A stretch of DNA of 64,000 nt from a virus (IMGVR_UViG_3300034152_000478:64001-128000), one strand, 5' to 3'; positions 10,737-52,445 are shown, counted from the first letter of the stretch. Translations and numbers: made by a program. The notes: a model not told the origin generated them from the letters alone.

Positions 10737-10993
10737 TAATCTGGTGGCATTTCATCAAGGGGCTCAAGAGGCATTTGACGGGGTGGCAATTCGTACTCCA
10801 TCGGTGTGTAAGAATGGAATACTTCTACAGAAACGATAATAGCTGCTATCGCCTGCCTTGATCTAATATAGCCACCGCATTTTCTTACAAGCCTGTCGGC
10901 TTCGCGCACTCTTGCAAGCACTGCCTGCTTGAATGCTTCATCATGGTTTTCGTCCTTTAACATTGCATGGGCAATCGCTTCAGCTTCGCTCAT
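10736..10993 (-). CDS. Hypothetical protein
   Basis: Operonic ORF with RBS. Confidence 0.5.
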   Translation of the reverse strand: MSEAEAIAHAMLKDENHDEAFKQAVLARVREADRLVRKCGGYIRSRQAIAAIIVSVEVFHSYTPMEYELPPRQMPLEPLDEMPPD

Positions 10994-35359: not shown

Positions 35360-35886
35360 ACAGGATAAACCTCCAGGAGGTATTCCATGGCATCTTCAAG
35401 CGTAGGTACGACAAGCGAGGCCGCCTGCGTTACGAAGGCGTGGTCGTGGCAATTGCCCTTGTCTTCCATGATGACGAGACATATCTTGCCAAGCTTTTCG
35501 GCCCAGGCCAGCTCGAACATGGTTCCAATGCTGACAGTCTCAGCCTGAGCCAGATTGAAGATAACAATGTCAGCTCGCTCCACATCACACTTATCTCGAC
35601 GGTAGATAGCCTGGTCTGAGGAAATACCAAGTCGGTCACCGCCCGGCGTATTATCTTGCGGATGAGCCTTAAGCTTCCTCTTGCGACTTAGGAATTCTTT
35701 GCCACGCATGGGTGAGTATGCTTTGTAATGGCCGCTCTCTTCCAGCTCTTTCTTTACCTGCTGCCTCCAGCCAGTACAACCCTTATAGCTGAGTCCCGTA
35801 ATAGGACCGGCCAGATACACCATCAATCTTGCTTCTCTATCCAGCATGTTAGCCTCCTTTAGACTATAAACAGTTTCTCTTTCCAA
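35356..35886 (-). CDS. Nucleoside 2-deoxyribosyltransferase-family protein
   Basis: VYLAGPITG, RDKCDVERAD, SIGTMFELAWA. Start likely 35847. Confidence 0.85.
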   Translation of the reverse strand: MERETVYSLKEANMLDREARLMVYLAGPITGLSYKGCTGWRQQVKKELEESGHYKAYSPMRGKEFLSRKRKLKAHPQDNTPGGDRLGISSDQAIYRRDKCDVERADIVIFNLAQAETVSIGTMFELAWAEKLGKICLVIMEDKGNCHDHAFVTQAASLVVPTLEDAMEYLLEVYPV

Positions 35887-36272
35887 TCTTTTGGATTAAG
35901 GTCTCTGAATTTTCGACAAGTGTAATTCGTACCTCCGCTGGCCTTGATATCAAATGGCAATACAGCACATGCTATTAAGATATCGCAATAGGCCGCTATT
36001 TCATTGTTTCTCTCATAGTAGCGCTGAGGGCTCGGCTTATGATTACTTGGTGGAAATATGAGTTTCGGTATCCCATATTCATCTGCGATTTGCTCAGCAA
36101 ACTTGTCGCCTCCCTCAGGACAACCTCCGGAGCATATCCAATCACCTTCTTTGTAAAACTCCCAGAATTTCATTAGAATGCAAGTCAGATCCTTGCCTTC
36201 GTTACGTTTACGTGAACCAATGATGCCGATTACTTTACTTGCAGCATTCCTGGAGGAGATTAACAATATCAT
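35859..36272 (-). CDS. SLOG-superfamily (DprA/YspA-like) protein
   Basis: IIGSR, SGGCPEGGDKFAE, RNNEIA, SGGTNYT. Confidence 0.8.
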   Translation of the reverse strand: MILLISSRNAASKVIGIIGSRKRNEGKDLTCILMKFWEFYKEGDWICSGGCPEGGDKFAEQIADEYGIPKLIFPPSNHKPSPQRYYERNNEIAAYCDILIACAVLPFDIKASGGTNYTCRKFRDLNPKDWKEKLFIV

Positions 36273-36569
36273 TTAGCTATCGTCAGCAAAAATGCCAACG
36301 TCTCCGTTCTCTTCGATCTTCACATCTTCATAAGGGCCAGCCACCTTGCGGTAGACTTCCAGCTTGGCGCATTCCAGAACGCCTACAATCTGCTGAATGC
36401 GAGCATAGCGTACACCGGGAGTCAGGATCAGGCGGTGCACAATCTCAGTAATGACATAGTTCAGAACTCCGTCATACTGATCTTCAGGAATGGCTGTGGT
36501 GATTCTATTGACCAGCTCCTGGATCTCATCCTCTAAAACTGTTCGTTGGGTTTGTTTGATGTACGGCAT
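36273..36569 (-). CDS. Conserved phage protein (DUF6899-like)
   Basis: MPYIKQ, GVLNYVIT, GVLECAKLEVYRK..PYED.KI.ENGDV. Confidence 0.75.
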   Translation of the reverse strand: MPYIKQTQRTVLEDEIQELVNRITTAIPEDQYDGVLNYVITEIVHRLILTPGVRYARIQQIVGVLECAKLEVYRKVAGPYEDVKIEENGDVGIFADDS

Positions 36570-36572
36570 AAA

Positions 36573-36917
36573 CTACTCCTTTACTGGCTTTTCTTCTCGT
36601 AACAAATCTCCTCTATGCTCTAAACAGGCTATTGTAAGAGCAGCTACTTTTACTAAGTCTTTAAGCACTTCTTCTTCATGAACTATTTGAGCATTGGATG
36701 GATTTTCCTTGTAAGCATCTAATACGAGCCTTCCGCCAGCTCCTCCGAGAAACTTACTCTTAGCTCTATTAAGATAGGCTTCTATATAAAGAACCCATTG
36801 AGCTACATGGTTCAATTCGTCAAAAGACAGAGTATTTTCTGGTCTGTCACTATCATACATAGAATTTTGATAGGATCTTTCCTTATTGATTAATTCGAAC
36901 ACTTCTTCTCTTTTCAT
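36573..36917 (-). CDS. MazG-like helical protein
   Basis: ERSYQ and LVKVAALTIACLE. AT-rich. Confidence 0.55.
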   Translation of the reverse strand: MKREEVFELINKERSYQNSMYDSDRPENTLSFDELNHVAQWVLYIEAYLNRAKSKFLGGAGGRLVLDAYKENPSNAQIVHEEEVLKDLVKVAALTIACLEHRGDLLREEKPVKE

Positions 36918-36925
36918 GTTTTCTC

Positions 36926-37771
36926 CTAAAAGTTCTGACTGATAACTGTACCGAACGGTGCCGTACCCCATTTGCCTGCTCTATTTCGTGCAACCACTGC
37001 TTCAATGTTCTTCAGCTTCTCCTCAAATATCTTGTGATTGCGAGCCGAGTTTCTTGCCATATTCATATGTGCTACACCATGCCAAAGATGAATGGCAGAA
37101 AAGTCTTCGTAGCAGGCTTTATAATCCTGGAGACCGACTTCACGCAAGGCATAAACCCACCAGTCCTCATCTCTCGCCCAGTTCTTTCCGGCGAAATCTT
37201 CATCGTATCCACCAGCTTCAATAGCCGCTTCTCTTGGGTAAGCTACGATCCAACCAGATTTTGGTGATCTTATTGGAATTTTGAATTGGTCGTACATTTC
37301 CAGGATGTTGGCTTCTCTGCATACTTTTTCGTGCAAAAGAAACTCATTCACTCTGGTCGGCTTGAATGCAGTGCTCTCTGAGGAATCCCACACCATGGCA
37401 AAGTTCAGGGCATTATCAACGCCCTCGCGGTATGGCTCCAAGGCATAGTATATAAAGTCTTCGCTGATCCAGTGATCGGCATCAGTAGTGCAACACACTT
37501 CTCCGATGGCGTGACGAAGGCAGATGTTACGAGGCAAGCTTGGATTAGTCCATCCATTGAATGGCACGAAGATGTAGTGTAATTTGAATGGCGCGGTGTT
37601 GAGATACCCCTCCATGAATTCCCTTGTTCCATCCGGGCTGTTGCCATCAAGCACGATACATTCAAAATCAATACCAGGATTGCGTATTTTGTTAAGCTCT
37701 AACCGAGCCAAGAATGCTTTTAGATGTGGTAGCCTATGATATGTCGTATGGATAATTGAAAGCTGTGTCAT
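36926..37771 (-). CDS. GT2 glycosyltransferase with GT7C-like C-terminus
   Basis: LDGNSPDGT, PRN, TDAD, GGYDEDF...W..DED, HLWH. Confidence 0.85.
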   Translation of the reverse strand: MTQLSIIHTTYHRLPHLKAFLARLELNKIRNPGIDFECIVLDGNSPDGTREFMEGYLNTAPFKLHYIFVPFNGWTNPSLPRNICLRHAIGEVCCTTDADHWISEDFIYYALEPYREGVDNALNFAMVWDSSESTAFKPTRVNEFLLHEKVCREANILEMYDQFKIPIRSPKSGWIVAYPREAAIEAGGYDEDFAGKNWARDEDWWVYALREVGLQDYKACYEDFSAIHLWHGVAHMNMARNSARNHKIFEEKLKNIEAVVARNRAGKWGTAPFGTVISQNF

Positions 37772-38424
37772 TCAGGAAACTCCAAGTTGAGAGGCGGTTG
37801 AAGCACCAGCATCTCTGGATTAAAAACAGTTGGCACATGCGCGTGGAGTAGGCCGTAGATAAATTGCGCTATCTGACGTATTTCCCATTGCGCATGCTTG
37901 TCGAGACGAAGGCGCAAAAAATCCCACCAGCCCTGCAATGTGCCGCTTACCACCATTTGTGTTTTGCATGCATTTGGCAGCACGAATCTGGCATCTTCTC
38001 TTTTGAATTTTTCTCTTAGCTCATTATAGAATTGCCAAAGCCTCAGCATACATCGGTGGAATAGCTCTGGCATAGCGCCCTTGTCAGTTCTTATACTATC
38101 AGGCAGAACATACTCTGGAAAGTCTTCTGCACACCAGCGCTGGCTGCGCTGAAGGTATCTAAGGTGGGCATGTCTGACAAGCTGATGGCTGCAGGCGCGA
38201 CTAATGCCGCTAATCACGAAGGAACAGTGAGCATGGCTGAGAATGGAGAAATGACCTTCTCTAAGTCTGGCGGGAAGGAATCGCTTATACGAATCCTCGG
38301 TCATTTTGTGCAGCGTATTGTAACAGAAGCGAGCACAATATTCGAGGTGTCGCTCAACATCGGGGGTGAGCCCACGAATGCTCACAGATGGGTCCATGAG
38401 CTGTAGATATCCACTTGTCTCCAT
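37768..38424 (-). CDS. thyX: FAD-dependent thymidylate synthase
   Basis: GHFSILSH, SRACSHQLVRH, SQRW, EDARFVLP, HAQWEIR. Confidence 0.93.
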   Translation of the reverse strand: METSGYLQLMDPSVSIRGLTPDVERHLEYCARFCYNTLHKMTEDSYKRFLPARLREGHFSILSHAHCSFVISGISRACSHQLVRHAHLRYLQRSQRWCAEDFPEYVLPDSIRTDKGAMPELFHRCMLRLWQFYNELREKFKREDARFVLPNACKTQMVVSGTLQGWWDFLRLRLDKHAQWEIRQIAQFIYGLLHAHVPTVFNPEMLVLQPPLNLEFPE

Positions 38425-38447: not shown

Positions 38448-38999
38448 TTACGGCTTTCGCCAGGTTATACATATCACCTTGGCTATAATGTCCTTCTTCT
38501 TGATCGGCCCATAGTCGCGTGAGTCCATGGACCTTTGACGATTATCCCCCATGACCCAGTATTCATTTGATCCCAGCGTATAAGTTCTCGATCGTACTTT
38601 TAGCGGCTTGTAGTCATAAAGGTATGGCTCCTCCAGAACCTTTTCTCGTCCTCGAATTGACTGAACGATAATACCACTCTTGTTGACCGTAACAGTTTCG
38701 CCAGGCAGCCCTATTACCCGCTTGATCACATCCACATCAGGACGATTGATCGTTATAATGTCTCCTCTATCCACATTGGTTGTGAGATAAGTGACACACA
38801 TGTCCCCATGATTCAAAGCAGGAAACATCGAAAAGCCTGATACCTGACAAAGACGAATCTTACATAGTATGAATATGGCCACGGAAAGCAGGATGGCCAA
38901 TCTGATCCATTGTGTGATGTTAGTTTTTGCGCGGCAGCCTTTTGAGTTGGTCGAGGATTTTTCCTGCATCATTTGCAAAGCCTCCCGTGTAACACGCAA
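38448..38999 (-). CDS. lepB: Signal peptidase I (S26)
   Basis: TM helix, SGFSMFPAL (Ser), IKRVIGLPGE (Lys), GDNR..SMDSRDYG. Start uncertain. Confidence 0.9.
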   Translation of the reverse strand: MRVTREALQMMQEKSSTNSKGCRAKTNITQWIRLAILLSVAIFILCKIRLCQVSGFSMFPALNHGDMCVTYLTTNVDRGDIITINRPDVDVIKRVIGLPGETVTVNKSGIIVQSIRGREKVLEEPYLYDYKPLKVRSRTYTLGSNEYWVMGDNRQRSMDSRDYGPIKKKDIIAKVICITWRKP

Positions 39000-39696
39000 C
39001 TGAACAACGGTTTAAATCTGCACTCCAATAAGCTTCTATCAATTGCGGCTCATGAAACAGGATAATGTTGGGTACGTTGTATATGAATGCCGCGTAGCCG
39101 AGTAGTCCATCGGGCGCTATAACTAAGCTGGCTCCCAGTGTGTATCGCAATGCTTCCAGCAGGGAAGTCTTGCCACGATGGTCCTCTATAATACTATCGG
39201 TCCAATTTGCTGGTCGACTACCAACTTTTTTCCCTAAAAGCACAATTTTTTTGCCGATAAATTCAGCCAGCTCATTAATACATTTGTTTGTGAGCCCCCT
39301 TGTGCCACCTCCGCCATCGGCCACCAGGGCCACGTAGTCGCCGCGTGATACTTCTACGATCGGCATGGGTACGTCAATACATAGAGCGTCCACGCACGTT
39401 GTGAGGGCTGTAGCGACGTTCCAGACGCGCTTAGGAACCACACTCCAGAACTGGCCATTTGGATAGCTATTGACAGTGTATTGTAAACATACACCATAGC
39501 CACGAGCAGCCTGAGAGACCAGTTGCCAATATTCTCTCAATGGCTCTTCGTATGTGCTGGCCCTACGCTCAGCCTCGAAGTGGTCGTAATAGACTCGCTG
39601 CCCAGGAGGTACGGTGCGACGGATGATGTTTAGTAGCTTGCAGCTTAAGATGACACTATCACCCAAGCCTCCGCTACCTATGAATCTCGTCTGCAT
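38920..39696 (-). CDS. Divergent GT9-like glycosyltransferase
   Basis: SGGLGDSV, DHRGKTSLLEA, APDGLLGYAA..NVPNIILF. Confidence 0.65.
   Translation of the reverse strand: MQTRFIGSGGLGDSVILSCKLLNIIRRTVPPGQRVYYDHFEAERRASTYEEPLREYWQLVSQAARGYGVCLQYTVNSYPNGQFWSVVPKRVWNVATALTTCVDALCIDVPMPIVEVSRGDYVALVADGGGGTRGLTNKCINELAEFIGKKIVLLGKKVGSRPANWTDSIIEDHRGKTSLLEALRYTLGASLVIAPDGLLGYAAFIYNVPNIILFHEPQLIEAYWSADLNRCSVACYTGGFANDAGKILDQLKRLPRKN
39186..39210 (-). promoter_or_regulatory. Phage promoter-like motif, copy 3 (intragenic)
   Basis: Minus strand GCAAATTGGACCGATA-GTATTA-TAG, about 200 bp upstream of the signal peptidase. Confidence 0.6.
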
Positions 39697-40340
39697 TATT
39701 CAAAGTACTCCAACTGAGGAAAAAGCGTCGTCGGATCTTCGTGGTAATGATAATGTATCTTGCCAACCCAGTAGTGACGGATCTCCCAAATGTGCCTGAA
39801 GCCTCTCTGTCCGTGTCCTTCCCACATGGCATTGAATACCGGATCTCGGAAAAGTTTCTGTTCAAACAGCTCTGCCATTCGCTGCAGAACGCTATATTGT
39901 GGTCGCTTTGCTATATGTAGTACGCCCTCTATCAGCCTACATAGATTCACATGGCCAAAATGTGGCTTGGCTGTCATGAATTCGAAGTCGCTACCAGGCA
40001 GCGCAAAGAAGCCTCGTTTGCATGTACGATTTATCTGCCTAATGGCCGCAGGTAGGTCTTCAATGTGCTCAAATGTGTGACTCGAATACATAAAGTCGAA
40101 GTAGTTGTCTGGATAATCACGCAGCACTGAGACTGCATCGCCCTCCAGCAACTCTCTATCTCCGACATTCAATCCACGTCTATGTCTCTGGGCGTTCGTG
40201 TCCACCATGTCGATGATGTGCGTCGCCTTCGGATATGGCTTATCACCTCCACCAATATCCACAACACGATCATTAGGCCCAATTCCGAAATCAATATGTA
40301 AAAGGCCAGCATATCGTCCGTCTCCTGTGAAGAGTTTCAT
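39696..40340 (-). CDS. Class I SAM-dependent methyltransferase
   Basis: VDIGGG, FDFMYSSHTFEHIED. Confidence 0.85.
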   Translation of the reverse strand: MKLFTGDGRYAGLLHIDFGIGPNDRVVDIGGGDKPYPKATHIIDMVDTNAQRHRRGLNVGDRELLEGDAVSVLRDYPDNYFDFMYSSHTFEHIEDLPAAIRQINRTCKRGFFALPGSDFEFMTAKPHFGHVNLCRLIEGVLHIAKRPQYSVLQRMAELFEQKLFRDPVFNAMWEGHGQRGFRHIWEIRHYWVGKIHYHYHEDPTTLFPQLEYFE

Positions 40341-41206
40341 TTAACTCTCCTCGATAGAAAATCTGGCAGAGTAGGCGATTGAAAACCTGCGGCTCCTTTG
40401 TGACCTCCTCCACCTCTTGCCTTGCACATTTCTCCGCACTCAACATGCTCTTTGTTGCTATACAGTGACATTGTGTATTGGTTGCCATCAAAGACGAATG
40501 AAACGCAGAGATCATACTCGTCCAGAAGACCACCAAAAGCCAGAGAAGAAGCTCGACCGAGATTTATTGCAAACACACTGTAGTCTTCCAACTCAGTTTC
40601 AAATCCCCACGATTTCACATATTCCTTGTAAAACTGACTCTGGAATTTCTGTGCGATTTTCCCAGCTTCTATACAGTCTGTCACTGCTTCCAGTGCTGCC
40701 TCTTGGCTGTAGTCAATAGCGAAAAGCTTGCTCCACACTTCCTCTTCGGGACCAGTTTCTCCCATCTCTATGCCCATTTTGAATGGAATAGTATCTTCAA
40801 TGGAATGAATCCAGCGATCCCAGTCATCAACGATTCTCAGCGCAAAAGGAATACTCACTTGCGGCATTATATATTGCCAGGTCAACAATGCGCCACATCC
40901 ATCTTCGCTGCGTACACCAGGTAGACTGTGTTGTACGCCTTCTGGATCACCCTTAATAGCTGTCTTATGATGGTCAATCCACGTTACATGTCGAGTTATA
41001 GCCAACAGCTTGTCCCAATCGCCGGGTTTTTGCAATGAGAAATCTATAATCCAAACTTCTTCGCCAGGCTCAATGTCATCAAATGGCACTTCCCTATTGT
41101 AATCCATTTCCACAAACTTAATTGTGTACTCTTGGTGGCTTAAGCTTAGGCGAACCACGGCAGCAGCCGCACGTCCATCAAGATCATTGTGATGTAGAAC
41201 TATCAT
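40337..41206 (-). CDS. DHH/DHHA1 phosphoesterase
   Basis: HHNDLDG, IDFS, IDHHKT, GGGGHKGAAGF. Confidence 0.92.
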   Translation of the reverse strand: MIVLHHNDLDGRAAAAVVRLSLSHQEYTIKFVEMDYNREVPFDDIEPGEEVWIIDFSLQKPGDWDKLLAITRHVTWIDHHKTAIKGDPEGVQHSLPGVRSEDGCGALLTWQYIMPQVSIPFALRIVDDWDRWIHSIEDTIPFKMGIEMGETGPEEEVWSKLFAIDYSQEAALEAVTDCIEAGKIAQKFQSQFYKEYVKSWGFETELEDYSVFAINLGRASSLAFGGLLDEYDLCVSFVFDGNQYTMSLYSNKEHVECGEMCKARGGGGHKGAAGFQSPTLPDFLSRRVK

Positions 41207-41534
41207 CTTGTTCCTCTCTCAGATTGTTTAGTAGATCATCCAGAATCATCTTTACTTCTTGTCCAGGTCCTTCGTTGGCTATTATCCAGTCCCGCTGTAG
41301 GACGATGGCTCGATCACTATGGTGTCGCTTCCAAAATGCGGCATCCATTTCGAAAGGCATCCAACCAAAGCAGCGTATGCGCAACAGCCTTCCCTCCTTG
41401 AAGAAGCCTGATGGTATATCTATTTTGCCATCCTCTGGAATCTCATCACAAAATATCAATTCGCTATTAACAGGCTTCTCAAAGTTAGGTTGCACGATAG
41501 CAATGATTGCACCCGGCAATGTTCGCACAATCAT
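41184..41534 (-). CDS. Hypothetical protein
   Basis: ATGA overlap with the upstream gene. Confidence 0.5.
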   Translation of the reverse strand: MIVRTLPGAIIAIVQPNFEKPVNSELIFCDEIPEDGKIDIPSGFFKEGRLLRIRCFGWMPFEMDAAFWKRHHSDRAIVLQRDWIIANEGPGQEVKMILDDLLNNLREEQDDSSTSQ

Positions 41535-42265
41535 ATGATCTTCCTCTTTTTGAGATATTTAACAACTTGCTTTACGCACTGCTCAACAGTTTTCGATTCT
41601 GTATCTAATTTAAGCTCTGCTTCATAAGGTATTTCATATGGATCATCCACGCCAGTAAAACCCATTATTTCGCCACGTCTTGCTTTGGCGTACATACCTT
41701 TCACATCGCGACGCTCACATTCTTCAACTGAGCAATCAGCATAAACCTCAATGAAGTTGTACATGCGTTGGCGTAGTTCTTCACGTGCCTCGCGGAAAGG
41801 CGATATGAAAGTACATATAGTAACTACTCCATTGCGAGCTAAGCGCTCAGCCACAAAACGAATGCGTTGCAAGTTCTCTGCTCGATCTTCTTTTGAAAAG
41901 CCCAGATCAGATGTCAAGTCTTCCCGTACAATATCTCCATCCAGACGTTCAACTTTGACACCAGCTTGTCTTAGTCGTTCGGCTGTGGCATCTCCAACGG
42001 TAGTTTTGCCAGAACAAGGCAGTCCCGTGAACCAAAGCACACAGCCAGTATCTGTCGTCACCGAGAATAGCTTATTGAAAACGCAGTCGTATGCAAAGTA
42101 TACTCCAGTTTTTGCTGTTTCCATTAAAAGACTAAACGTCACAGCCACATGAACGCTGCCAGTCAGGATGAATGACCCAATGAATTGGAATATCAGTGCA
42201 AATATTCTGTAGAGCCCAGCTTTAGTGAGTAGAATTCTGGGCTGAAGTTTTCTCCAATTCTTCAT
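41531..42265 (-). CDS. cysC: Adenylyl-sulfate (APS) kinase with N-terminal two-helix membrane domain (DUF2061-like)
   Basis: WFTGLPCSGKTT, LDGDIVR, LGFSKEDR, RDVKGMY, FTGVDDPYE. Confidence 0.92.
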   Translation of the reverse strand: MKNWRKLQPRILLTKAGLYRIFALIFQFIGSFILTGSVHVAVTFSLLMETAKTGVYFAYDCVFNKLFSVTTDTGCVLWFTGLPCSGKTTVGDATAERLRQAGVKVERLDGDIVREDLTSDLGFSKEDRAENLQRIRFVAERLARNGVVTICTFISPFREAREELRQRMYNFIEVYADCSVEECERRDVKGMYAKARRGEIMGFTGVDDPYEIPYEAELKLDTESKTVEQCVKQVVKYLKKRKII

Positions 42266-42645
42266 ATGCTATCCTCCAACTCGTCAATGATTGCCTGTAC
42301 TTCACGCGGCACCTCGCTGGACAAGCCAGCCCTGATCTCAGTGCCGGAAATACGCTTGACATCTTCGGGTGCTTCCACAATGTAGTATCCGACTTGTCTG
42401 CCTATAATCACACCATCTATGTCAGGTATGATAATCACCTTTAACAACCCAGACCGCAGCTCGTCTTCATAGCAAGCTTCTATCATTCTCTTGCGTTGGA
42501 ATGCTGACCATTTTTCATGGCCGTCTCTAACTGCCACACAAACTGGCTTTTTGTTCATCAGGAAAGTGTCGATAATGTGTTTATGTCCACAGTGGAATGG
42601 ACTCCATCTGCCAATGAATAGATTATACTTCACAAACTCCCCCAT
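42262..42645 (-). CDS. Small HxGH nucleotidyltransferase (ATP-sulfurylase/cytidylyltransferase fold)
   Basis: FIGRWSPFHCGH, GRQVGY, ISGTEIR. Confidence 0.8.
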   Translation of the reverse strand: MGEFVKYNLFIGRWSPFHCGHKHIIDTFLMNKKPVCVAVRDGHEKWSAFQRKRMIEACYEDELRSGLLKVIIIPDIDGVIIGRQVGYYIVEAPEDVKRISGTEIRAGLSSEVPREVQAIIDELEDSI

Positions 42646-43541
42646 ACGATCCCATTGTGTGCTAAATCAGGCACGTCTAAAATCCTAATCTCGTGGCACT
42701 GATTCACTTTCTTGATTTCAGTTGTCCCAGTTACTCTTAGTTGATGGTTCAGCTCAGTGATGTGAATTGAATGGCTTCCTACGCCTCTTACTACTCGTGG
42801 ACAGTGCGTCGATGAGCCGACCAGTATTCTGTCCTTGCTAATAGCAAGTCCCCTTGTATATTTGCAATCCCCCTTATAGACCAACTCTTTGGCTCTTGCT
42901 CCACGTCGTTTCTGCATATTGTAGCGTCGTATCATAGACTTTGGCGAATGACAGAAGTACATAAAGTCGCCAACGATCGCCACATTGTGCAATTGTGAGC
43001 CGACATGGACATTGTCAAGCACCTTAGTGAACCCAACATCGACACATTTAATGTTGCTTGGAAACTGGTAATTATGCTCGACCACCCAGAAGTTTCCATC
43101 TTGTTTCCAGATTGAATTCAGGTGATTGTTCTTGTGGTTTTTATATCCTTTCTTGTCGTTCCATTTTCTGGCAAATCCCCAGGTGTATGGCTTAGCAAAA
43201 ACGCCGCTTGTCCGCATGCGTTCTATGCGACCACGATACGTATTTACTATGTACAGCATTGAAGTTTCTGGATCATAGTAAGCCTGATGTACGCCATGGA
43301 TCTTTGTCGGATATGTAGCTTCTACTTTGAATTTTTTGTTGAGTATAGCCACGGTGTCTGTTAGTTTTCTGTCACCGCTTCTTTGGCAGACGAACAAGAA
43401 ATCTTCACTCCAAGATACACCAAAACAGCTATCCTTAAAAACCTTTTTGTACCTTCCTTTATGCACCAAAAATAGACCGCAGGGTGTTGCTACCAGGTAT
43501 CTCAAATTTGAGGCTGCCATATCAATACACCTATTCCGCAC
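42630..43541 (-). CDS. Beta-propeller protein, paralog 1
   Basis: HQ, HLNS, HN, RGLA, DLAHNG motifs shared with two paralogs. Confidence 0.7.
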   Translation of the reverse strand: MRNRCIDMAASNLRYLVATPCGLFLVHKGRYKKVFKDSCFGVSWSEDFLFVCQRSGDRKLTDTVAILNKKFKVEATYPTKIHGVHQAYYDPETSMLYIVNTYRGRIERMRTSGVFAKPYTWGFARKWNDKKGYKNHKNNHLNSIWKQDGNFWVVEHNYQFPSNIKCVDVGFTKVLDNVHVGSQLHNVAIVGDFMYFCHSPKSMIRRYNMQKRRGARAKELVYKGDCKYTRGLAISKDRILVGSSTHCPRVVRGVGSHSIHITELNHQLRVTGTTEIKKVNQCHEIRILDVPDLAHNGIVWGSL

Positions 43542-44200
43542 CCTACTTTTCCATCAGGTCGCCTATGGCTGATTTCTCTTGTCTCAAACTGTCTCTTCAC
43601 TCCCTCCCAGACTCTCCAGACGCGGAACTTCGGCCCGTGCTTATTCTTGATATCATGGAACACGATAATACCGCCAGGTCTGACAAAACTTCGGTACATA
43701 CACCAATCCTTGCGGCAGCCAGCTTCCGTATGATCACCATCTATAAACAACAAATCAAGCTGACGACACTTTAGTGCAGTCTCTACGGCATCTTGGCTCT
43801 CAATCTTATGAGAATCACCTATTATGATTTCATGTTTGAAAGTCGGCTTATGTCTCGGAATTGCTGACACAACACTTTGACCCGTGCCTTCCCACTGTTT
43901 GGGAGTCGGCATATCCATCCCAATACCAAAAACATTCTCGCTTTGCCAGCTCAACACATTGCCTATCAGCACAAAGTTGGCACCATAGGCCAGCCCTATT
44001 TCCATGAAGTTAATCTGCTCAGTGCGATCTTTTAGATGGTTAGTGGCAAAATCCAGGAAGTCTACTATCTCCTTTTTGCGCTGCAATGAAGACTGAATCT
44101 TGCCTGTGACTTTCTTGAAATACTCAAGACGATCATATTCTGCAGCTATTAACTTCTTGTTCACTTGTGTGCTCCGAACGGAATGCCGTTGTGCGCCCAA
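43502..44200 (-). CDS. Class I methyltransferase (Methyltransf_24-like)
   Basis: FMEIG..YG, GDSH, LLFIDGDH, GGIIVFHDI. Confidence 0.88.
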   Translation of the reverse strand: MGAQRHSVRSTQVNKKLIAAEYDRLEYFKKVTGKIQSSLQRKKEIVDFLDFATNHLKDRTEQINFMEIGLAYGANFVLIGNVLSWQSENVFGIGMDMPTPKQWEGTGQSVVSAIPRHKPTFKHEIIIGDSHKIESQDAVETALKCRQLDLLFIDGDHTEAGCRKDWCMYRSFVRPGGIIVFHDIKNKHGPKFRVWRVWEGVKRQFETREISHRRPDGKVGCGIGVLIWQPQI

Positions 44201-45027
44201 TCCAATTCCGAAATGAGTCGCAGACAGAATACCTGGTTCACTTGTGGTAATCTGATTACGTCTCTGATTTCCAGCGTCTCCTGGTCGACAATGGTCACAT
44301 ATCCAGCTCGATCATCTTTCCTCTCTTGTGGGGTGCCCCAGCATGATTGGCCTATCACGAAGAAGTCTGAGCCCACTGCGAACCCACGAGGATAATCCTT
44401 GAAGTGTGGTTTGGGCAAATGAAACTCCTTGCGGCCGACTATTTGCTTGGTCGCCATGTCCATTTGAATCAGCGTGCGGTCCAATGACATTAGGCTGTAC
44501 AGCATGCCGTCTCTAATGAAGATGTTGTGACCCTCGTTTTCAAGCTGGTAGGTATTGATTGGATGTTCAAGATCACTGTCATAGAACTCTTGCACCCTGC
44601 AGTTGAAGTCACGCTTCCCATTCTGCTCACCGACATAGATACACTCGCCATATCTGTAGATCGAATTAATATGATTCCAGTTGTCGGATCGCCCGGTGTA
44701 GTTGAAGCTGGCAAATTCGTGCACCGCTGGGTCCCAAATCTCTACTCGGTTGCGGTCGGTATTAGTCATATAAAGTAGCTCGTGCTTGTCATCATACAGT
44801 GCTTGATGAACACGACACACGCTCTTTGCGGGCACTTTGTTAAGTAGCCGCAGACTGTGGTCAAACAGCCAAATTTCCGTATGTAGCGTTGGATGTCGAT
44901 GACAAACATACAGAGTGTATTCGTCCCAGCTAATGCCGTAGCAGGCTCCTCGCTGGACGAGGTGCACATTCTGACCGTCCACGAAAAAGAGGCCGCGTGC
45001 TGTTGTTACCAGTAGTTTAATACTCAT
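44161..45027 (-). CDS. Beta-propeller protein, paralog 2
   Basis: HQ, HINS, HN, RGFA, DWAHNG. Confidence 0.7.
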   Translation of the reverse strand: MSIKLLVTTARGLFFVDGQNVHLVQRGACYGISWDEYTLYVCHRHPTLHTEIWLFDHSLRLLNKVPAKSVCRVHQALYDDKHELLYMTNTDRNRVEIWDPAVHEFASFNYTGRSDNWNHINSIYRYGECIYVGEQNGKRDFNCRVQEFYDSDLEHPINTYQLENEGHNIFIRDGMLYSLMSLDRTLIQMDMATKQIVGRKEFHLPKPHFKDYPRGFAVGSDFFVIGQSCWGTPQERKDDRAGYVTIVDQETLEIRDVIRLPQVNQVFCLRLISELDWAHNGIPFGAHK

Positions 45028-45911
45028 AGTACTATTCCGTTATGTGCCAGGTCAGGTTCTCCCAAGGCTCTCACTTCGTATACTTGGTTGCCTTTGGGGA
45101 TACAGACTGAGCCAATCTCTTTGAACTCTTCGTCCATCTTAATGATCCAGGCGTCAAATAGCTCCATGCGCTTCTCTCTGCCACAGTGCATTGAAGCTCC
45201 CATTAGGAAGTAGCCGTCGCAGCGAGCAAGTCCCCTGGAATATGTACGCGGAAAGGCATCTTCAAAGCTTCTGTTTTGTACAATACGATCTTCGACCATA
45301 GAGTACTTGGCTATCTCACTCGTCAATGATACGGTTGTATATATGAATTCGCCTTCAACGTACACATTGTGAATCTGACTTGCAACCACCCATGCTTGTG
45401 GACGACCCACTATCTCAGGAGGCATCTTAATTACCCTGGAAGGATGATGTTTCTTGTTGTGTTCACAGGACCACCAGCATTCGCCATCAAACCATACAGA
45501 GTTAATATGGTTGTAGTCGCAGCCTGCTACTGGGGTCCAGTTATTAACCAGTATCTTATTGCCAGCAATATCAAAAAAGTCAACACGATTCTGGTGTGTG
45601 TTGGTTACGGCGATTGTCTTGGTTTTTGGATCATAGTGTGCTTGATGATTGTCTTTCACTTGTGGCAAATGCACTTCATCCATCACGCCGAAATCTTCAG
45701 GGTGCAAGGAGACCATTTTAGTTTGAGTATTTTGATTTATCCGCTGAAAAGCAAAGATTCGAGTCTTGCTCCAGGTTAATCCGTAGACATGTCCCTCATA
45801 GACCAACTCACAGTCTCTACCATCTATGTAAAAGATGCCCCTTGGTGTCGTGGCTAAGCAGCGCATCATATTAAATACTCCCTCCAGTTGTCTCTGATTT
45901 CCGGCAACCAA
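45024..45911 (-). CDS. Beta-propeller protein, paralog 3
   Basis: HQ, HINS, HN, RGLA, DLAHNG. Start likely 45869. Confidence 0.7.
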   Translation of the reverse strand: MVAGNQRQLEGVFNMMRCLATTPRGIFYIDGRDCELVYEGHVYGLTWSKTRIFAFQRINQNTQTKMVSLHPEDFGVMDEVHLPQVKDNHQAHYDPKTKTIAVTNTHQNRVDFFDIAGNKILVNNWTPVAGCDYNHINSVWFDGECWWSCEHNKKHHPSRVIKMPPEIVGRPQAWVVASQIHNVYVEGEFIYTTVSLTSEIAKYSMVEDRIVQNRSFEDAFPRTYSRGLARCDGYFLMGASMHCGREKRMELFDAWIIKMDEEFKEIGSVCIPKGNQVYEVRALGEPDLAHNGIVL

Positions 45912-46717
45912 TCATCTGTAAAGTCCACAAGTTCGTTGGGTAGTGCGACAGGCTGATTTCTCAACGGCTCTGTTTGTCCTTCAGCAAATCCATCTATTGT
46001 ATTGCCCTGTGATGGCCAGCGTAAGAATCTCTCGTTGTACCATTTCGTTAGGCTTGGTCTATCAAACGTGAGCACTTTATCTCTTATAAGCCGGGGATGT
46101 TTTACCCAGCACAAGTGAGTCATTTGCGAACGCTTCCTTGACAGCGAGACACGCCTATCCTTTATGACATCTTTACCATCAACCAGAAAATGATTAGACG
46201 CAGTATAACGCCCGCCTTTCTGAAAGCGGATAAACCGTCCCAGGTGCGACGCAGGGAACCACCAGCGAAGATTGTAGGCATACTGATATTCTCCAATCTG
46301 TACGTGTTGAACCTCGTCATACATGCGGAAAATGCGCAAGATATCCCAGAGTCCCTCGCCCCCATAGAATTCGTCAGTGTCCATAAGATGAATCACATCA
46401 CCAGGCTCTATGTCTGAAAATTCCAGCAGGTAGTTCTTGTTAATGCCATGTTGAGCCTCTCTACTGTGCCCACGCATTCTTTCTATGGGAATAGGCGGTG
46501 CTATAAATATCTGATCAGGATACTTGGCCTCCATTTCCTTCAGTACAGCCATGGTGTTGTCGGTTGAGCGTTCTGGAAGATTCCGGTTGATAGCAAGCGA
46601 TCCTTCTGCAATCAGAATTCTGTCGATATGCTCTATCCGATTCTCTATTACTCGTCTTGCCAGGTCTTCTTCATTGTAGACTTCCATTAAGCCTATAACA
46701 CGCATATTATCCTCCAA
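45866..46717 (-). CDS. GT2-like glycosyltransferase
   Basis: VYNEED, AEGS, STDNT, MDTDEF; resembles the N-terminal domain of 10980-12722. Confidence 0.8.
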   Translation of the reverse strand: MEDNMRVIGLMEVYNEEDLARRVIENRIEHIDRILIAEGSLAINRNLPERSTDNTMAVLKEMEAKYPDQIFIAPPIPIERMRGHSREAQHGINKNYLLEFSDIEPGDVIHLMDTDEFYGGEGLWDILRIFRMYDEVQHVQIGEYQYAYNLRWWFPASHLGRFIRFQKGGRYTASNHFLVDGKDVIKDRRVSLSRKRSQMTHLCWVKHPRLIRDKVLTFDRPSLTKWYNERFLRWPSQGNTIDGFAEGQTEPLRNQPVALPNELVDFTDDWLPEIRDNWREYLI

Positions 46718-47309
46718 CGTACACTACACCAAAACCATGAAAGCCAGTGGTATGCTTACAGCGCTTACGGATTTTCTCCCAGGCTTTTTTCGGCTTGTTG
46801 TTAACATCATCGAACACTATCAGTCCACCCTTTCGGACCAATGGCCTATACATGGTATAATCTTCCAGACAGCCCTCAACACTGTGATTACCGTCTATGA
46901 ACAGGAGATCAATCCCACGACCCTGTAGATCATCCTTGAGTTTATTTAGCGTTTTCTTTTCGTGTGAGTCGCCCTCAATAATTCCCCATAGGAACTGTGG
47001 ATTTAAGGCTGCGACTGCTTGGTCTGGGGGTAGCGTAGTGTGCTTATCATATGTCATATTGAAGATATCTATGCCAATTGCCACTACTGTTTTGCCAGCT
47101 TGCAATAGACAGTTTCCAATCAACACAAAGCTGCCACCCATGTGAACGCCTATCTCTACAAAGACAACTTCTTTCTGTTCCTTGAAGTGCTGTAAGATAA
47201 AATCAACCAGCCTGCAGGCACCATGCTGTGTTTGCATAATGACTTCTCGGCGATCCTTACGCCCCTTGAGCAGTCGATTGAGTTCTTCCCTGATTTCTTT
47301 CTCGTTCAT
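46707..47309 (-). CDS. Class I methyltransferase (Methyltransf_24-like)
   Basis: FVEIGVHMGGS, GDSH, LLFIDGNH, GGLIVFDD. Confidence 0.88.
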   Translation of the reverse strand: MNEKEIREELNRLLKGRKDRREVIMQTQHGACRLVDFILQHFKEQKEVVFVEIGVHMGGSFVLIGNCLLQAGKTVVAIGIDIFNMTYDKHTTLPPDQAVAALNPQFLWGIIEGDSHEKKTLNKLKDDLQGRGIDLLFIDGNHSVEGCLEDYTMYRPLVRKGGLIVFDDVNNKPKKAWEKIRKRCKHTTGFHGFGVVYVGG

Positions 47310-47938
47310 GGCTTACTAAAGAAAGTGTCTCCCTGACATTTGCCCGTTGCTTTATAGCCGTATGGGCGCAGCAGGGCTAAGGCTTCTTCAGCCCCCACCT
47401 GATGGGTTTCGATGCAGAATACTCGCGGCAAGACCGGACAGTCCTGAATACCACGAAGCGCTGCCAGCTCATTGCCTTCGATATCCAAAACAAACAAGTC
47501 GACTTCTGTTATTCCATGTCTTTCTATTAGTGTCTTGTAGGTTATCGTGTTTACTTTATGGCGTTCTAATCGAAGCTCACCCCTCTTAAGTGTGTCCCAT
47601 ATCTCCCACTTGTGCTTGAAGACAATCGACCCTCGTCCTGTCATTTTGTTTTTGTTGTCTGATTCATTCAGAGGCAGCATGAATTCTACTTCTTCGTCGT
47701 CAGCATCACTCAGCGCATACTTAAGATTGAGACAGTTAGGCCGGTTCTTTTTCAGAGCACTGAAGCAATAGGGATTACATTCAATATTAATGCCGTGCCA
47801 CTCGTTCTTCGCCTCAAACCAGCGACAGGTGCTGATAAACTTTCCATCATTGGCACCACACTCTATGAAAGTGCCACCTTTATGCTTGCGTAGCCAAGGG
47901 AATCTCTTCAAAAGGGCTTCAGTCAGCTTTGTTTTCAT
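47306..47938 (-). CDS. FkbM-family methyltransferase
   Basis: FIECGANDG, GINIE, LDIEGNE, PRVFCIE. Confidence 0.9.
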   Translation of the reverse strand: MKTKLTEALLKRFPWLRKHKGGTFIECGANDGKFISTCRWFEAKNEWHGINIECNPYCFSALKKNRPNCLNLKYALSDADDEEVEFMLPLNESDNKNKMTGRGSIVFKHKWEIWDTLKRGELRLERHKVNTITYKTLIERHGITEVDLFVLDIEGNELAALRGIQDCPVLPRVFCIETHQVGAEEALALLRPYGYKATGKCQGDTFFSKP

Positions 47939-48869
47939 TGCGATAGCGATTCTTTACCCAGTCTTGTTCTGGTCGATAGAATGTGTTCAAAGCCTGGACC
48001 ACCTGTAAGATGGCAGGGTCAAGCCCCAGCTCTTGACAACATGCCTCCAGCGCCCCAATGTCTTTCATGAAGCAGCTCCCACCGGCACCACGCAGGCCGT
48101 CTGGTCCTGGCACGTAGGTGTGCGAAGGACCAATGCGATCATCGAGAGCAATGCCTCGCCGCACTACATCGTAATTACATCCAAGCATGCCAGCGATATC
48201 GTAATAGAAGTTGAAGAGCATTAGCTTGGTAAACAATGTGACATTAGATCCATATTTGATTAGCTCGGCCGCCGTGTTAATGCAAAGAATCAGGCGATCA
48301 TCAAAATTACAGACATGTGGATTGGTGTTGATTCTGCGTAGGACATCCACCAGTCTCGTGTCATGCGCTTCATCGCTCCCAATTACAACCCTTGTGGCAT
48401 CCATTAGTGTTCCAACAGGATCAGCTTCGGTCAAGAATTCCGGGCTGAAGTGTAAATGTAGGCCACGAAATTGTGTAGCAAATTTACTTGTTGTGCCTGG
48501 TGGCACCGTAGACTTGATGCACACAGGTAGGCGTCCATTCGCTTCTATCGCGTGCAGAATGTTCAGCTTATTGAGAACATCCTTGACAATAGATAGATTG
48601 GCTTTCTCACATCGTCCATCTTCACAGTAAGCCAGTGGCGGAGTTGGCACACATACCAGTACGATATCTGCACGTTCTACTAAATGATTCAGCGAAGGAA
48701 CCGATAAAGGCAAATTCCATCCTGGAAATCTGCGTCCAAAATTAGGCTCTATATCATAGATAATGACGTTATGATATCCTCGATTTCTTAATGCCACATA
48801 GTGGGCAGCTCCCACAAAACCGCCACCAACAATTCCAATAACTGGCCCAGGGAAATCTTCGCAGCCCAT
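47919..48869 (-). CDS. UDP-glucose 6-dehydrogenase-family protein (lacks C-terminal domain)
   Basis: GGGFVG, VCVPTP, KSTVPPGTT, PEFL.E, AELIKY..N, GGSCFMKD. Confidence 0.88.
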   Translation of the reverse strand: MGCEDFPGPVIGIVGGGFVGAAHYVALRNRGYHNVIIYDIEPNFGRRFPGWNLPLSVPSLNHLVERADIVLVCVPTPPLAYCEDGRCEKANLSIVKDVLNKLNILHAIEANGRLPVCIKSTVPPGTTSKFATQFRGLHLHFSPEFLTEADPVGTLMDATRVVIGSDEAHDTRLVDVLRRINTNPHVCNFDDRLILCINTAAELIKYGSNVTLFTKLMLFNFYYDIAGMLGCNYDVVRRGIALDDRIGPSHTYVPGPDGLRGAGGSCFMKDIGALEACCQELGLDPAILQVVQALNTFYRPEQDWVKNRYRNENKAD

Positions 48870-48872
48870 AGT

Positions 48873-49613
48873 TCACCTCACCATAATGCGATCAAAGCGT
48901 ACAACACCTACGCCACGGTCATGTCCGTTGCCAAATACCCAGTGTTTATAGAAATGTGAAATGCGGTTCCACAACATTACGCCTTTATTAACATAGCAGC
49001 CAGTAACATCATGAACAGCCACAAGGCCACCACTTTTAACCATGCCTGTATAGTAGTCCCAATCGTGATTGCAAGTTGGGCAATCGTGTCCGCCATCAAT
49101 GTAAAGCAAGTCAAGTCTCCGCCCTCCTCTAAGCGCTGCGATCTGTGCACCGTGTATGGTTTCCTTCTTGGTAGAATCACCCTTGACAAAATCCCAGGTG
49201 AACTTAGGCCCAAGATTCTTAATGCACTCATCAGCCCCCATCAGTTTCTGGTAGGCCCAGCCACGTCCAGGTCGCTCTGGAGTCGGTATCTCTGGCATGT
49301 CGACGGCAATCCCGTGCACCTTGCCAAAGGCTTTCATTAACATATTGCCCATCAAAACAAAGTTGCCGCCACGATTAGTACCTATCTCCATAAAGACAAT
49401 CTCGGAAGGATACTGATGGCGAAAGTAATCTATCATGAATTGCGTGCATGCCAGGGCTTCTCCTTTGCGCTGCATAATACAGTCAGCAGGAGGACATTTG
49501 TTACCCGTGAACTTCACGATCCGTTCATACTCAGCGGTAATATCCGGGATCATGCTTCCTTTGTTGATAATGCGCTTGATCAGCGCGTCACTTTGCTCTC
49601 TGGTGAAGTCCAT
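48873..49613 (-). CDS. Class I methyltransferase (Methyltransf_24-like)
   Basis: FMEIGTNRGG, GDS, LLYIDGGH, GGLVAVHD. Confidence 0.88.
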   Translation of the reverse strand: MDFTREQSDALIKRIINKGSMIPDITAEYERIVKFTGNKCPPADCIMQRKGEALACTQFMIDYFRHQYPSEIVFMEIGTNRGGNFVLMGNMLMKAFGKVHGIAVDMPEIPTPERPGRGWAYQKLMGADECIKNLGPKFTWDFVKGDSTKKETIHGAQIAALRGGRRLDLLYIDGGHDCPTCNHDWDYYTGMVKSGGLVAVHDVTGCYVNKGVMLWNRISHFYKHWVFGNGHDRGVGVVRFDRIMVR

Positions 49614-50009
49614 CTATTCCCCCTTGACTCCTTTAGCTAATGCCTGTCTGTATTTGTCGACTTTGTCAGGATGTCTCTTCTTGTATTCCTGAAAGCTTTT
49701 CTTCCCCTTGCGGCGCTCGGCAAGAACTTCGTTGCTATTCTCTTGCTCTTGCTTTTTTTCTTCTGTGCGCTTTTCATGCGCCTCGATATCTCCAGGATGC
49801 TCGCCAGTTTTCTCGATCCGTATGTCTTTACCAGGCCAGCCCTCGCCTTTGAAGACTACATTGGTACTAAAAATACGGTTCATTTGCGTTTGACATTCTT
49901 CACAAATCATTTCCTCAGGCGGACCTACATCTATTGGTGCTGAGAAAGATTGCGTGTTGCCGCAATTGGCGCATTTCCATTCGTATATCATTTTTCCTCC
50001 GGGTCCCAT
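49614..50009 (-). CDS. FmdB-like zinc-ribbon protein
   Basis: YEWKCANCG...CEEC...VFKGEGW. Confidence 0.8.
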   Translation of the reverse strand: MGPGGKMIYEWKCANCGNTQSFSAPIDVGPPEEMICEECQTQMNRIFSTNVVFKGEGWPGKDIRIEKTGEHPGDIEAHEKRTEEKKQEQENSNEVLAERRKGKKSFQEYKKRHPDKVDKYRQALAKGVKGE

Positions 50010-50464
50010 TGGCTCCAGCCATATGCGCCTTTGTGTGGACCTTCATATTCTTCAATGAGTATACCTGCTTCTGTCATTATTTCAGTCGACAAATCATATT
50101 TTGAATCTGGACGATCCGGTTTCTCCAGGTACACGAGCCGTTTAATGCCAGCTTGTATTAAGTCAGTAGCGCAACGCACACAAGGATAAAGAGTCAAGTA
50201 AAGAGTCCAGCCTTCCAAGTCTTCCTTGGCGTTTAGCAGCGCATTATCTTCAGCATGTATTACAAGATCGTACTTGTGTGGCCGCTTCCATCTTTCAACA
50301 GTATCTTTGACGCCTGCGGGAAATCCATTGTAGCCAACATAAACCTTCCGATTATCAGGACTGACAACAACTGAACCAACTTGTGTGTCTGGGTCTTTCG
50401 ATCGCTCTTTGATAACCAGAGCAACATTCATCCAAACCATATCCCAATCCCAAGGTTCTCTCAT
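49988..50464 (-). CDS. dCMP deaminase
   Basis: RSKDPDTQVG, GYNG, HAEDNA, PCVRCA. Confidence 0.93.
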   Translation of the reverse strand: MREPWDWDMVWMNVALVIKERSKDPDTQVGSVVVSPDNRKVYVGYNGFPAGVKDTVERWKRPHKYDLVIHAEDNALLNAKEDLEGWTLYLTLYPCVRCATDLIQAGIKRLVYLEKPDRPDSKYDLSTEIMTEAGILIEEYEGPHKGAYGWSQWDPEEK

Positions 50465-51405
50465 TCGTCCGCCTTTCTATACACCCTTGTCCCTAAGAAA
50501 TAGTTGGCCGACTTGCTCATGGTACCAGGCTCCAGCTCGCTAATAGCAGCGTCCATAATCCCAATGCGACTGTCTGCCATGTCGGCAATATGTAGTAGTT
50601 GTGCCTCTGGTGTCGCAGGCTCAACCGGAGAGCCCCATTCCATTTTACCATGATGCGCCAGCATACAGTGAGCCAACTGAATGAATTCCTCTTTTGTTAG
50701 TGTCAGATTGTTTTCTTCTATGCATTTGATTAACAGTTCATAGCCAATAACAATATGGTTGACGAGGCTCCCAATCAGCGTGTAGTCGATAGAAAACTGA
50801 TCCACTGTATAGGTGGGTACTTTACCTATGTCATGTAATAGTGCAGCAGTTAATAGCAGGCTACGATTGACATGGTTGCCATATACGTCTGCCATTTTAT
50901 CGCACAGCATAGCAACGTGAACAGTGTGTTTCAGAAGACCACCAAGACAAGCCTCGTGCACCTTTGCAGCGGCCGGTGTGCGACATAGATCCTCGCCATA
51001 CTTCTTAAGCATAGCAATTAGAACCGCCTTATAGCGCTCGTTCTTGATCTTGCGCATAAGCGCTCCCATCTCTTTTTTGTATTCAGCAATTTCTGCTGTG
51101 TCAAGAGAGAGTAGCATGTCTTCCATTAGCTCGGGAGACGGCTTTTCTATTCTGGTGACACGACTGGTATTGAGGCTTTTGTTGTTTTTGAATTCGTTCA
51201 CAGTCCCCGTAATAGAAACCACATCTTTGTGCTTCACACCACAGCGTTCAAGATCCGTATCCCACATGAAGCAACGGACACTCTTGCCGCCAGCAGATAC
51301 CAGAAGCTCAACGTATGTCTTCTGGGTTTTGGTTTTCTTTTCTTGGATGCTGTCAACAAACCCCTCGATAGTAACAACTTCGCCTGCATTCTTCTCAGAT
51401 AACAT
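50461..51405 (-). CDS. YhaM-like 3'-5' exonuclease (OB + HD)
   Basis: N-terminal OB fold, PAA..HE..GGLLKHT, LLHDIGK, HHGKMEWGSP, ADMAD. Confidence 0.9.
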   Translation of the reverse strand: MLSEKNAGEVVTIEGFVDSIQEKKTKTQKTYVELLVSAGGKSVRCFMWDTDLERCGVKHKDVVSITGTVNEFKNNKSLNTSRVTRIEKPSPELMEDMLLSLDTAEIAEYKKEMGALMRKIKNERYKAVLIAMLKKYGEDLCRTPAAAKVHEACLGGLLKHTVHVAMLCDKMADVYGNHVNRSLLLTAALLHDIGKVPTYTVDQFSIDYTLIGSLVNHIVIGYELLIKCIEENNLTLTKEEFIQLAHCMLAHHGKMEWGSPVEPATPEAQLLHIADMADSRIGIMDAAISELEPGTMSKSANYFLGTRVYRKADE

Positions 51406-51407
51406 TT

Positions 51408-52442: not shown

Positions 52443-52445
52443 AGG

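Follow-up and report, generated by a model that had tools for sequence, protein, structure and literature searches.

Three paralogous beta-propellers encoded beside an APS kinase in a large phage as candidate non-canonical sulfotransferases

We analysed bases 64001-128000 of a 150,882-bp virus record from IMG/VR (IMGVR_UViG_3300034152_000478), which is rated complete by CheckV; this 64,000-nucleotide stretch is called the window throughout. Its minus strand carries genes for three paralogous beta-propeller proteins, in one chain with genes for a HIGH-motif nucleotidyltransferase, an adenosine-5'-phosphosulfate (APS) kinase and a DHH-type phosphoesterase. We propose, with a probability of roughly 0.4, that the propellers are non-canonical sulfotransferases that are fed by an in-operon synthase of 3'-phosphoadenosine-5'-phosphosulfate (PAPS) and relieved by an in-operon phosphatase of 3'-phosphoadenosine-5'-phosphate (pAp). 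In this scheme the mini nucleotidyltransferase and the APS kinase would make PAPS, each propeller would take the sulfuryl group, probably via a histidine as in arylsulfate sulfotransferase (ASST), and would pass it to a different hydroxyl of a heavily O-methylated glycan built by the phage, and the DHH enzyme would destroy the inhibitory by-product pAp. To our knowledge, sulfotransferases have two established architectures, the P-loop enzymes that use PAPS and the periplasmic ASST propellers, which work without it. New here are the phage setting, the triplication and a distant sub-family of propellers; the case gains further from the DHH gene and from a propeller standing where a related cassette has a canonical sulfotransferase.

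Results

Three paralogs of a large viral family

An earlier account made from the DNA sequence alone (the sequence-only reading) had described three paralogs of low identity with shared motifs. The open reading frames (ORFs) are present (Table 1), the proteins align end to end with 25-31% identity and 46 invariant columns, and every motif that it had listed, HQ, NT, H[IL]NS, HN, RG[LF]A, GxS, NQ and DxAHNG, is invariant among the three. The true start of paralog 3 is probably an internal ATG at 45869, giving 281 aa, because this ATG overlaps the upstream stop and 281 aa is the length of the ortholog P0001, found in a related phage contig with 67% identity. Paralog 1 probably also starts a few codons inside its listed ORF; its best representative match is P0015 (1.7e-101), and paralog 2 has an ortholog of 54% identity in the related contigs L014 and L015. 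No model in Pfam, NCBIfam or PHROGs matches the three propellers, even at E 10, and the annotated phage collection gave no match to the DNA of 41000-47000 in megablast or to the paralog 3 protein in tblastn. An exhaustive profile search recovered 1,221 representatives at E <= 0.001, 612 of them at E <= 1e-10. The family comprises more than 1,000 representatives at 50% identity, mostly viral or metagenomic and nearly all of about 280 aa, and those named in their source are labelled hypothetical.

A six-bladed propeller with a conserved pocket

AlphaFold2, run on an alignment of 78 family members, confidently models paralog 3 as a six-bladed propeller of 24 strands (predicted local distance difference test, pLDDT, 93.6; predicted template-modelling score, pTM, 0.91); the sequence-only reading had called the proteins beta-propellers. 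The propeller is closed by N-terminal strands and occupies residues 16-295, with no additional domain. Since there is no recognisable signal peptide, the proteins are probably cytoplasmic rather than periplasmic single-domain enzymes. In paralog 3 numbering, at least 90% of the 78 members keep G44, W47, H89, Q90, H135, N137, S138, H181, N182, R226, G227, G238, R248, R281, D287, H290 and N291. The model places H89-Q90, H135-x-N137-S138, H181-N182, R226-G227 and R281 at or just before the innermost strand A of blades 2 to 6, with H89, H135 and H181 preceding strand A of blades 2-4; strand B ends at E150-H151, S195 and G238/S240, and R248 lies in a B-C loop. Because of the propeller topology, these positions should all face the same mouth of the central channel, where they would form a basic pocket of four His, three Arg and several Asn together with Gln, Ser and Asp. 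As to the predicted convergence of the histidines, the conserved His start the innermost strand of three consecutive blades, and their channel placement is read from secondary structure.

Among known structures the model matches YWTD domains best (Z ~26), followed by the Zn lyase PAL (22.9), lactonases (~22), the ASST structure 3ELQ (21.6) and Cpz4 (9KF6, 20.6). Foldseek searches of the PDB and BFVD returned generic propellers, with an uncharacterised Caudovirales protein as the single close viral match, and a sequence profile search of the PDB found designed or NHL-type propellers only. The closest predicted structures, in the ESM Atlas, belong to unnamed or DUF4915 clusters (TM 0.82-0.83).

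A distant branch of the DUF4915 superfamily

A relation to TIGR03032/DUF4915 had been suggested, and profile comparison bears it out. In hhalign the 78-member alignment matched seven Acidobacteriota DUF4915 domains at 98.8% (E 1.1e-16, 251 columns), pairing H-Q with H-E, H-x-N-S with H-L-N-G and RGLA with TRGLAF. This match and these residue correspondences identify the phage propellers, at the level of sequence profiles, as a distant, shorter branch of the DUF4915/TIGR03032 superfamily. The 78-member profile also finds bona fide DUF4915 at 4e-10, and 37 of the 78 members have sub-threshold hits to PF16261. The three window proteins do not reach the gathering cut-off of PF16261 (35 bits) and have no hit at E <= 10; a six-frame PF16261 search of the phage genome was empty, with a positive control genome. 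A literature search returned no published function for the superfamily and no paper mentioning DUF4915, TIGR03032 or PF16261.

Candidate genes for PAPS synthesis and pAp removal in the same chain

Gene overlaps join paralog 3, paralog 2, a Methyltransf_24 gene, paralog 1, the nucleotidyltransferase, the APS kinase, a 116-aa ORF and the DHH gene, in this order, into an unbroken chain; the propeller genes do run without gaps into the HxGH transferase and cysC, as had been noted. The APS kinase scores 215.6 bits against TIGR00455, an equivalog model with a cut-off of 138.7, and its P-loop, LDGD, FISP and KGxYxKAR motifs are readable. The nucleotidyltransferase is a candidate mini ATP-sulfurylase-like enzyme. 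The phosphoesterase scores under the Pfam cut-offs (DHH 19.5 versus 28.1, DHHA1 15.8 versus 25.9); its translation contains HHNDLDG, IDHH and GGGGHKGAAG, and the DxD, D, DHH and GGGH motifs are all readable. It is a probable NrnA-like pAp phosphatase, with pAp as the presumed substrate.

This synteny is kept in relatives down to about 37% identity. L014 and L015 carry two propellers, a Methyltransf_24 gene at the equivalent position, a 253-aa cytidylyltransferase-like gene (fused to the APS kinase in L014), the APS kinase and, directly after it, an ortholog of the DHH protein (64% identity). The P0017 contig (~37% identity) encodes three propellers, a 125-aa protein and an APS kinase of 247 aa. 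The predicted DUF2061 membrane segment of the window's kinase spans residues 14-60 and may place PAPS synthesis at the membrane; the P0017-contig kinase is long enough for a similar N-terminal extension, and the L015 kinase (173 aa) is without one.

No other PAPS user is visible in the phage

Six-frame searches of the whole 150,882-bp genome with PF00685, PF13469, PF03567, PF09037, PF17784 and PF19798 (Sulfotransfer_1 to _5 and Stf0) gave no hit at E <= 1, and neither did a phage Sulfotransfer_3 protein used as query; the PF09037 (Stf0) and phage-protein searches were run without a positive control and say little. ATP sulfurylase was likewise not found in the complete genome at E <= 1. The absence of a P-loop PAPS-dependent sulfotransferase, claimed before for the window, therefore extends over these six Pfam families to the whole phage, in which no other PAPS user is visible. 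The propellers themselves lack the canonical P-loop alpha/beta fold of sulfotransferases, their model being all-beta. One conserved 258-aa protein missed by Pfam, p258 (38920-39696), was considered as a hidden sulfotransferase and rejected; with its N-terminal GGLGD and weak similarity to a GT9-like neighbour, it looks like a GT9-type glycosyltransferase.

A mobile nucleotidyltransferase/APS-kinase cassette in other phages

Scanning IMG/VR with an APS-kinase alignment yielded 29 other phage loci (L043-L071). In 20 of the 29 the APS kinase adjoins, or is fused to, a homolog of the mini nucleotidyltransferase, and structural relatives of the nucleotidyltransferase in the Atlas include archaeal and viral proteins fused to APS_kinase. 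In L052 the order is Sulfotransfer_3, nucleotidyltransferase, APS kinase, with the canonical enzyme in the slot held by propeller paralog 1 in the window, and small Sulfotransfer_3-like genes accompany the cassette in 4/29 loci. The product of the cassette is therefore most likely PAPS. All-against-all clustering of the neighbours in the 29 loci found no recurrent partner besides the nucleotidyltransferase and the small Sulfotransfer_3-like family. The APS kinase and the ~125-aa HIGH nucleotidyltransferase thus recur as a mobile phage cassette in very variable neighbourhoods, and the pair may be an unrecognised minimal PAPS synthase. In the literature we found no paper on a phage APS kinase with a sulfotransferase.

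Sulfate genes beside and within DUF4915 proteins

DUF4915 is present in six of 401 sampled Acidobacteriota genomes, with seven proteins. Three of the seven have the architecture [Asp/Arg hydroxylase]-[Sulfotransfer_3]-[DUF4915] or [Sulfotransfer_3]-[DUF4915], and two are encoded no more than 10 kb from an APS kinase or sat-cysC fusion, against an expectation of ~0.3%. Phage-type propellers occur in a few further Acidobacteriota genomes. All ten genomes with either propeller type (a tally that takes in one unpublished genome, G050, on which no specific claim depends) encode an APS kinase, compared with 244 of 401 overall (p ~0.007, uncorrected for phylogeny). One family locus, L042, lies amid four Sulfotransfer_3-like genes. 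A metagenomic protein of 570 aa, P0038, is a phage-type propeller fused to Sulfotransfer_3, and P0132 is one fused to a methyltransferase. The family-profile search at E <= 0.001 found no longer fused forms, which is weak evidence since P0038 surfaced otherwise.

Tri-domain proteins of the type [Asp/Arg beta-hydroxylase]-[Sulfotransfer_3]-[DUF4915] are encoded at L024 9705-12767, L025 9686-12670 and L026 9563-11347. Next to the L026 fusion are a sat-cysC fusion and a Calx-beta/DUF11 protein of 1008 aa, a hint of a system for protein modification.

The surrounding glycan region

The region is the glycan-building and -tailoring part of a large phage. The tailoring genes upstream of the propellers (Table 1) recur in L014, and elsewhere the window encodes GT2, GT9 and GT4 multidomain glycosyltransferases and a UXS-like short-chain dehydrogenase/reductase. 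A 1215-aa protein with GT4-like, DUF4214, GT9 and GT2 domains is encoded at 13644-17291, and its neighbour at 10980-12722 is a 580-aa protein with GT2 and GT9 domains. The operon also includes, at 38448-38999, a gene for signal peptidase I (S26), and L014 and L015 have a shorter S26 gene (126 aa) at the same position. L014 (1-4109) and the P0017 contig carry a B12-binding radical SAM protein, an amine-oxidase-like flavoprotein and a second radical SAM protein just upstream of the methyltransferase/propeller array. Nucleotide-metabolism genes are interleaved with the glycan genes at 33530-38424 and 49988-53120 (ThyX, nucleoside 2-deoxyribosyltransferase, PfkB kinase, dCMP deaminase, an OB-HD protein, and GMP reductase/IMPDH-family and UDG-family proteins), and part of the region may have a role in DNA modification.

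Table 1. The propeller operon and the tailoring genes upstream of it, in window coordinates
Feature	Position	Strand	Size	Evidence and remarks
Propeller paralog 3	45024..45911	(-)	295 aa as listed	ORF; AlphaFold2 six-bladed propeller
Propeller paralog 2	44161..45027	(-)	288 aa	4-nt overlap with paralog 3; three-paralog alignment
Methyltransf_24 (CmcI / rhamnosyl O-methyltransferase-like)	43502..44200	(-)		PF13578 2.5e-12; between paralogs 2 and 1
Propeller paralog 1	42630..43541	(-)	303 aa as listed	Overlaps nucleotidyltransferase start by 16 nt; three-paralog alignment
HIGH-motif nucleotidyltransferase	42262..42645	(-)	127 aa	Motifs GRWSPFHCGH ... ISGTEIR; weak PF01467 and NMNAT models
APS kinase with N-terminal DUF2061 membrane segment	41531..42265	(-)		PF01583 2e-59; TIGR00455; ATGA overlap with nucleotidyltransferase
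ORF	41184..41534	(-)	116 aa	No family hit; inside coupled chain
DHH/DHHA1 phosphoesterase	40337..41206	(-)		DHH 0.0013, DHHA1 0.02; motifs in translation
Upstream tailoring genes, one strand run	45866..49613	(-)		GT17-like, Methyltransf_24, FkbM methyltransferase, UDP-glucose dehydrogenase, Methyltransf_24 (Pfam)

Discussion

Sulfate transfer by the propellers is suggested by the overlapping gene chain and its synteny in relatives, the lack of another visible PAPS user, the L052 cassette, the sulfate-gene links of bacterial relatives and the ASST-like histidine layout. The phage operon is compact, with three paralogs and the candidate genes for donor synthesis and by-product removal within 5.6 kb, which makes the proposal directly testable, and the propeller family and DUF4915 recur beside, or fused to, sulfate-activation and sulfotransferase genes. 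The linkage with cysC, which the sequence-only reading had named as a check, holds in part: the superfamily is tied to sulfate genes independently in Acidobacteriota, but among phage-type members the linkage is confined to the phage lineage of the window.

Several observations weigh against a sulfotransferase function. The adjacency of cysC to phage-type propellers is in effect that of one phage lineage, and in none of the 29 other phage loci with an APS kinase is a propeller found within 10 kb of the kinase. Where context is available, for 16 family loci, about 11 lack a nearby APS kinase or sulfotransferase; free of sulfate genes are L004, L007, L008, L011, L013, L016, L041, L072, L073 and the P0172 contig. 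The fusion partners include canonical sulfotransferases, methyltransferases, an acetyltransferase and Asp/Asn hydroxylases, which would suit an accessory or other catalytic role too, and the Sulfotransfer_3 fusions fit a partner of a sulfotransferase as well as a sulfotransferase itself. A hub of histidines could equally bind a metal. In hhalign the similarity to ASST is at noise level, both for the phage family (0.95%) and for DUF4915 (0.6%), and the fold match to 3ELQ and Cpz4 is not better than that to non-enzymatic YWTD propellers; it is unspecific because the latter score higher.

The strongest competitor, which we regard as unlikely though it deserves serious attention, is a different tailoring of glycans or proteins that makes no use of the kinase product, for example by a metal-dependent hydrolase, lyase or epimerase or by an enzyme recognising phosphate or carboxylate, with the APS kinase being adjacent as part of one large tailoring operon. 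The most constant neighbours of the propellers, GT2, GT4, Methyltransf_24, polysaccharide deacetylase, FdtA and Wzx flippase genes in the loci free of sulfate genes, fit such a reaction, as do the methyltransferase, acetyltransferase and hydroxylase fusions, the presence of PAL, a Zn-dependent lyase (Z 22.9), and of lactonases among the best enzyme fold matches, and the lack of propellers in the 29 APS-kinase loci; L039 and L040 have unrelated neighbours. However, such a chemistry would leave the PAPS of the phage without a user, and the repeated Sulfotransfer_3 fusions, the proximity to APS kinases in bacteria and the ASST-like H-x-N-S and histidine layout would go unexplained.

An improbable alternative is modelled on the methyl phosphoramidate (MeOPN) pathway of Campylobacter jejuni (Cj1415-Cj1422). 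The nucleotidyltransferase would make an NDP-X other than APS, the kinase homolog would add a 3'-phosphate, as Cj1415 does to cytidine diphosphoramidate, and the propellers would transfer phospho-X to sugars, which methyltransferases would then methylate. Cj1415 is presumably an APS-kinase homolog and Cj1416 a nucleotidyltransferase. An APS-kinase homolog, a nucleotidyltransferase, methyltransferases and paralogous transferases occur together in both systems, the transferases of MeOPN acting on different sugar positions; the window encodes five methyltransferases along with three candidate transferases, and its nucleotidyltransferase resembles NMNAT and cytidylyltransferases rather than ATP sulfurylase. 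In C. jejuni, CDP-phosphoramidate 3'-phosphate is the joint product of Cj1415-Cj1418, and the capsule lacks methyl phosphoramidate once Cj1421 or Cj1422 is lost (PMC11800397). In contrast, the phage has no glutamine kinase of the PPDK_N type (PF01326 was not found in its genome and was positive in 13 of 14 control genomes), its nucleotidyltransferase belongs to the HIGH type, canonical PAPS-type sulfotransferases adjoin the homologous cassettes of other phages, and the bacterial relatives of the propellers associate with true sat-cysC.

Least probable of all are PAPS-independent relay transferases or acceptor-binding partners of a canonical sulfotransferase supplied by the host, on the model of Cpz8/Cpz4 in caprazamycin biosynthesis: the Sulfotransfer_3-propeller fusions and the match (Z 20.6) to Cpz4, a propeller of the ASST type by which a sugar hydroxyl is sulfated (PMC13426309), would agree with such a role, but the phage encodes donor synthesis and by-product removal and no canonical sulfotransferase, a passive partnership does not readily account for three paralogs, and the conservation pattern is that of a catalytic pocket.

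Extending sulfate transfer by the propellers to their relatives, the DUF4915 superfamily including the phage branch would be a third, structurally distinct class of sulfotransferases, which we put forward as a doubtful but worthwhile possibility. Its members would be minimal propellers of the cytoplasm in which a hub histidine accepts sulfate straight from PAPS; with three such enzymes and a PAPS synthase and pAp phosphatase of its own, the phage would write a position-specific sulfate code on a methylated glycan of the virion or the host envelope. If sulfate transfer is true, phages would be able to sulfate glycans with a complete pathway of their own, 'missing sulfotransferase' gaps would be filled in many glycan loci, and new biocatalysts would become available.

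Comparison with known systems

The ASST of E. coli is a periplasmic homodimer built from a beta-sandwich and a six-bladed propeller, with the active site at the channel mouth; His436 is transiently sulfated in a ping-pong reaction, and the sulfuryl group is held by His252, His356, Asn358, Arg374 and Thr501 (PMC13426309). The comparison with ASST drawn in the sequence-only reading does not extend to sequence: besides the noise-level profile comparison, PF05935 has no hit to the window proteins and reaches two of the 78 family members at E 0.06 or worse, and by these sequence comparisons the propellers are not members of the ASST family. Nor is ASST the best structural match, with Z 21.6 as against 26 for YWTD propellers; the match to 3ELQ (VIA Z 21.6, rmsd (root mean square deviation) 3.2, 264 residues) covers the six-bladed propeller common to both.

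The likeness lies in the layout of the active site. We mapped eight Acidobacteriota ASST homologs to 3ELQ (motifs WAH356VN358S, SSR374HQ and YTQH436T), and the sole local profile alignment pairs H135-I-N-S...E150-H151 of the family with H356-V-N-S...R374-H375 of ASST. In a modelled ASST homolog (pLDDT 82) the equivalents of His252, His356 and His436 start the first strand of three consecutive blades, and the equivalent of Arg374 ends the strand after its histidine, as E150-H151 does in the propeller family; in this topological comparison of models, Arg374 corresponds to Glu150 (~70% conserved), and His151 comes next. This matching pattern of histidines and strand-B positions suggests that the propellers may work like ASST without belonging to its family. 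Common to both are the strand-A placement of three histidines in successive blades and H-x-N-S (His356-x-Asn358-Ser in ASST). Unlike ASST, the window proteins are without an N-terminal beta-sandwich, have 281-303 aa and blades roughly one third shorter, and the phage family carries three extra invariant Arg and a fourth His, which, we speculate, would suit the extra phosphates of PAPS. The propellers are tied to PAPS synthesis, whereas ASSTs are PAPS-independent.

With DUF4915/TIGR03032 (PF16261) the propellers share the H-[QE], H-x-N, RGLA and GxS motifs and a fold match in the Atlas of TM 0.82; they are ~30-100 residues shorter, and the phage branch has an extra invariant D-x-A-H-N-G at the C-terminus. 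Closest in gene content are the cassettes of the L052 type, which encode PAPS synthesis plus a sulfotransferase. These have the nucleotidyltransferase/APS-kinase pair in common with the window, and in both a transferase gene lies immediately upstream; in the window this gene encodes an all-beta propeller instead of a P-loop sulfotransferase, and a DHH phosphoesterase is added.

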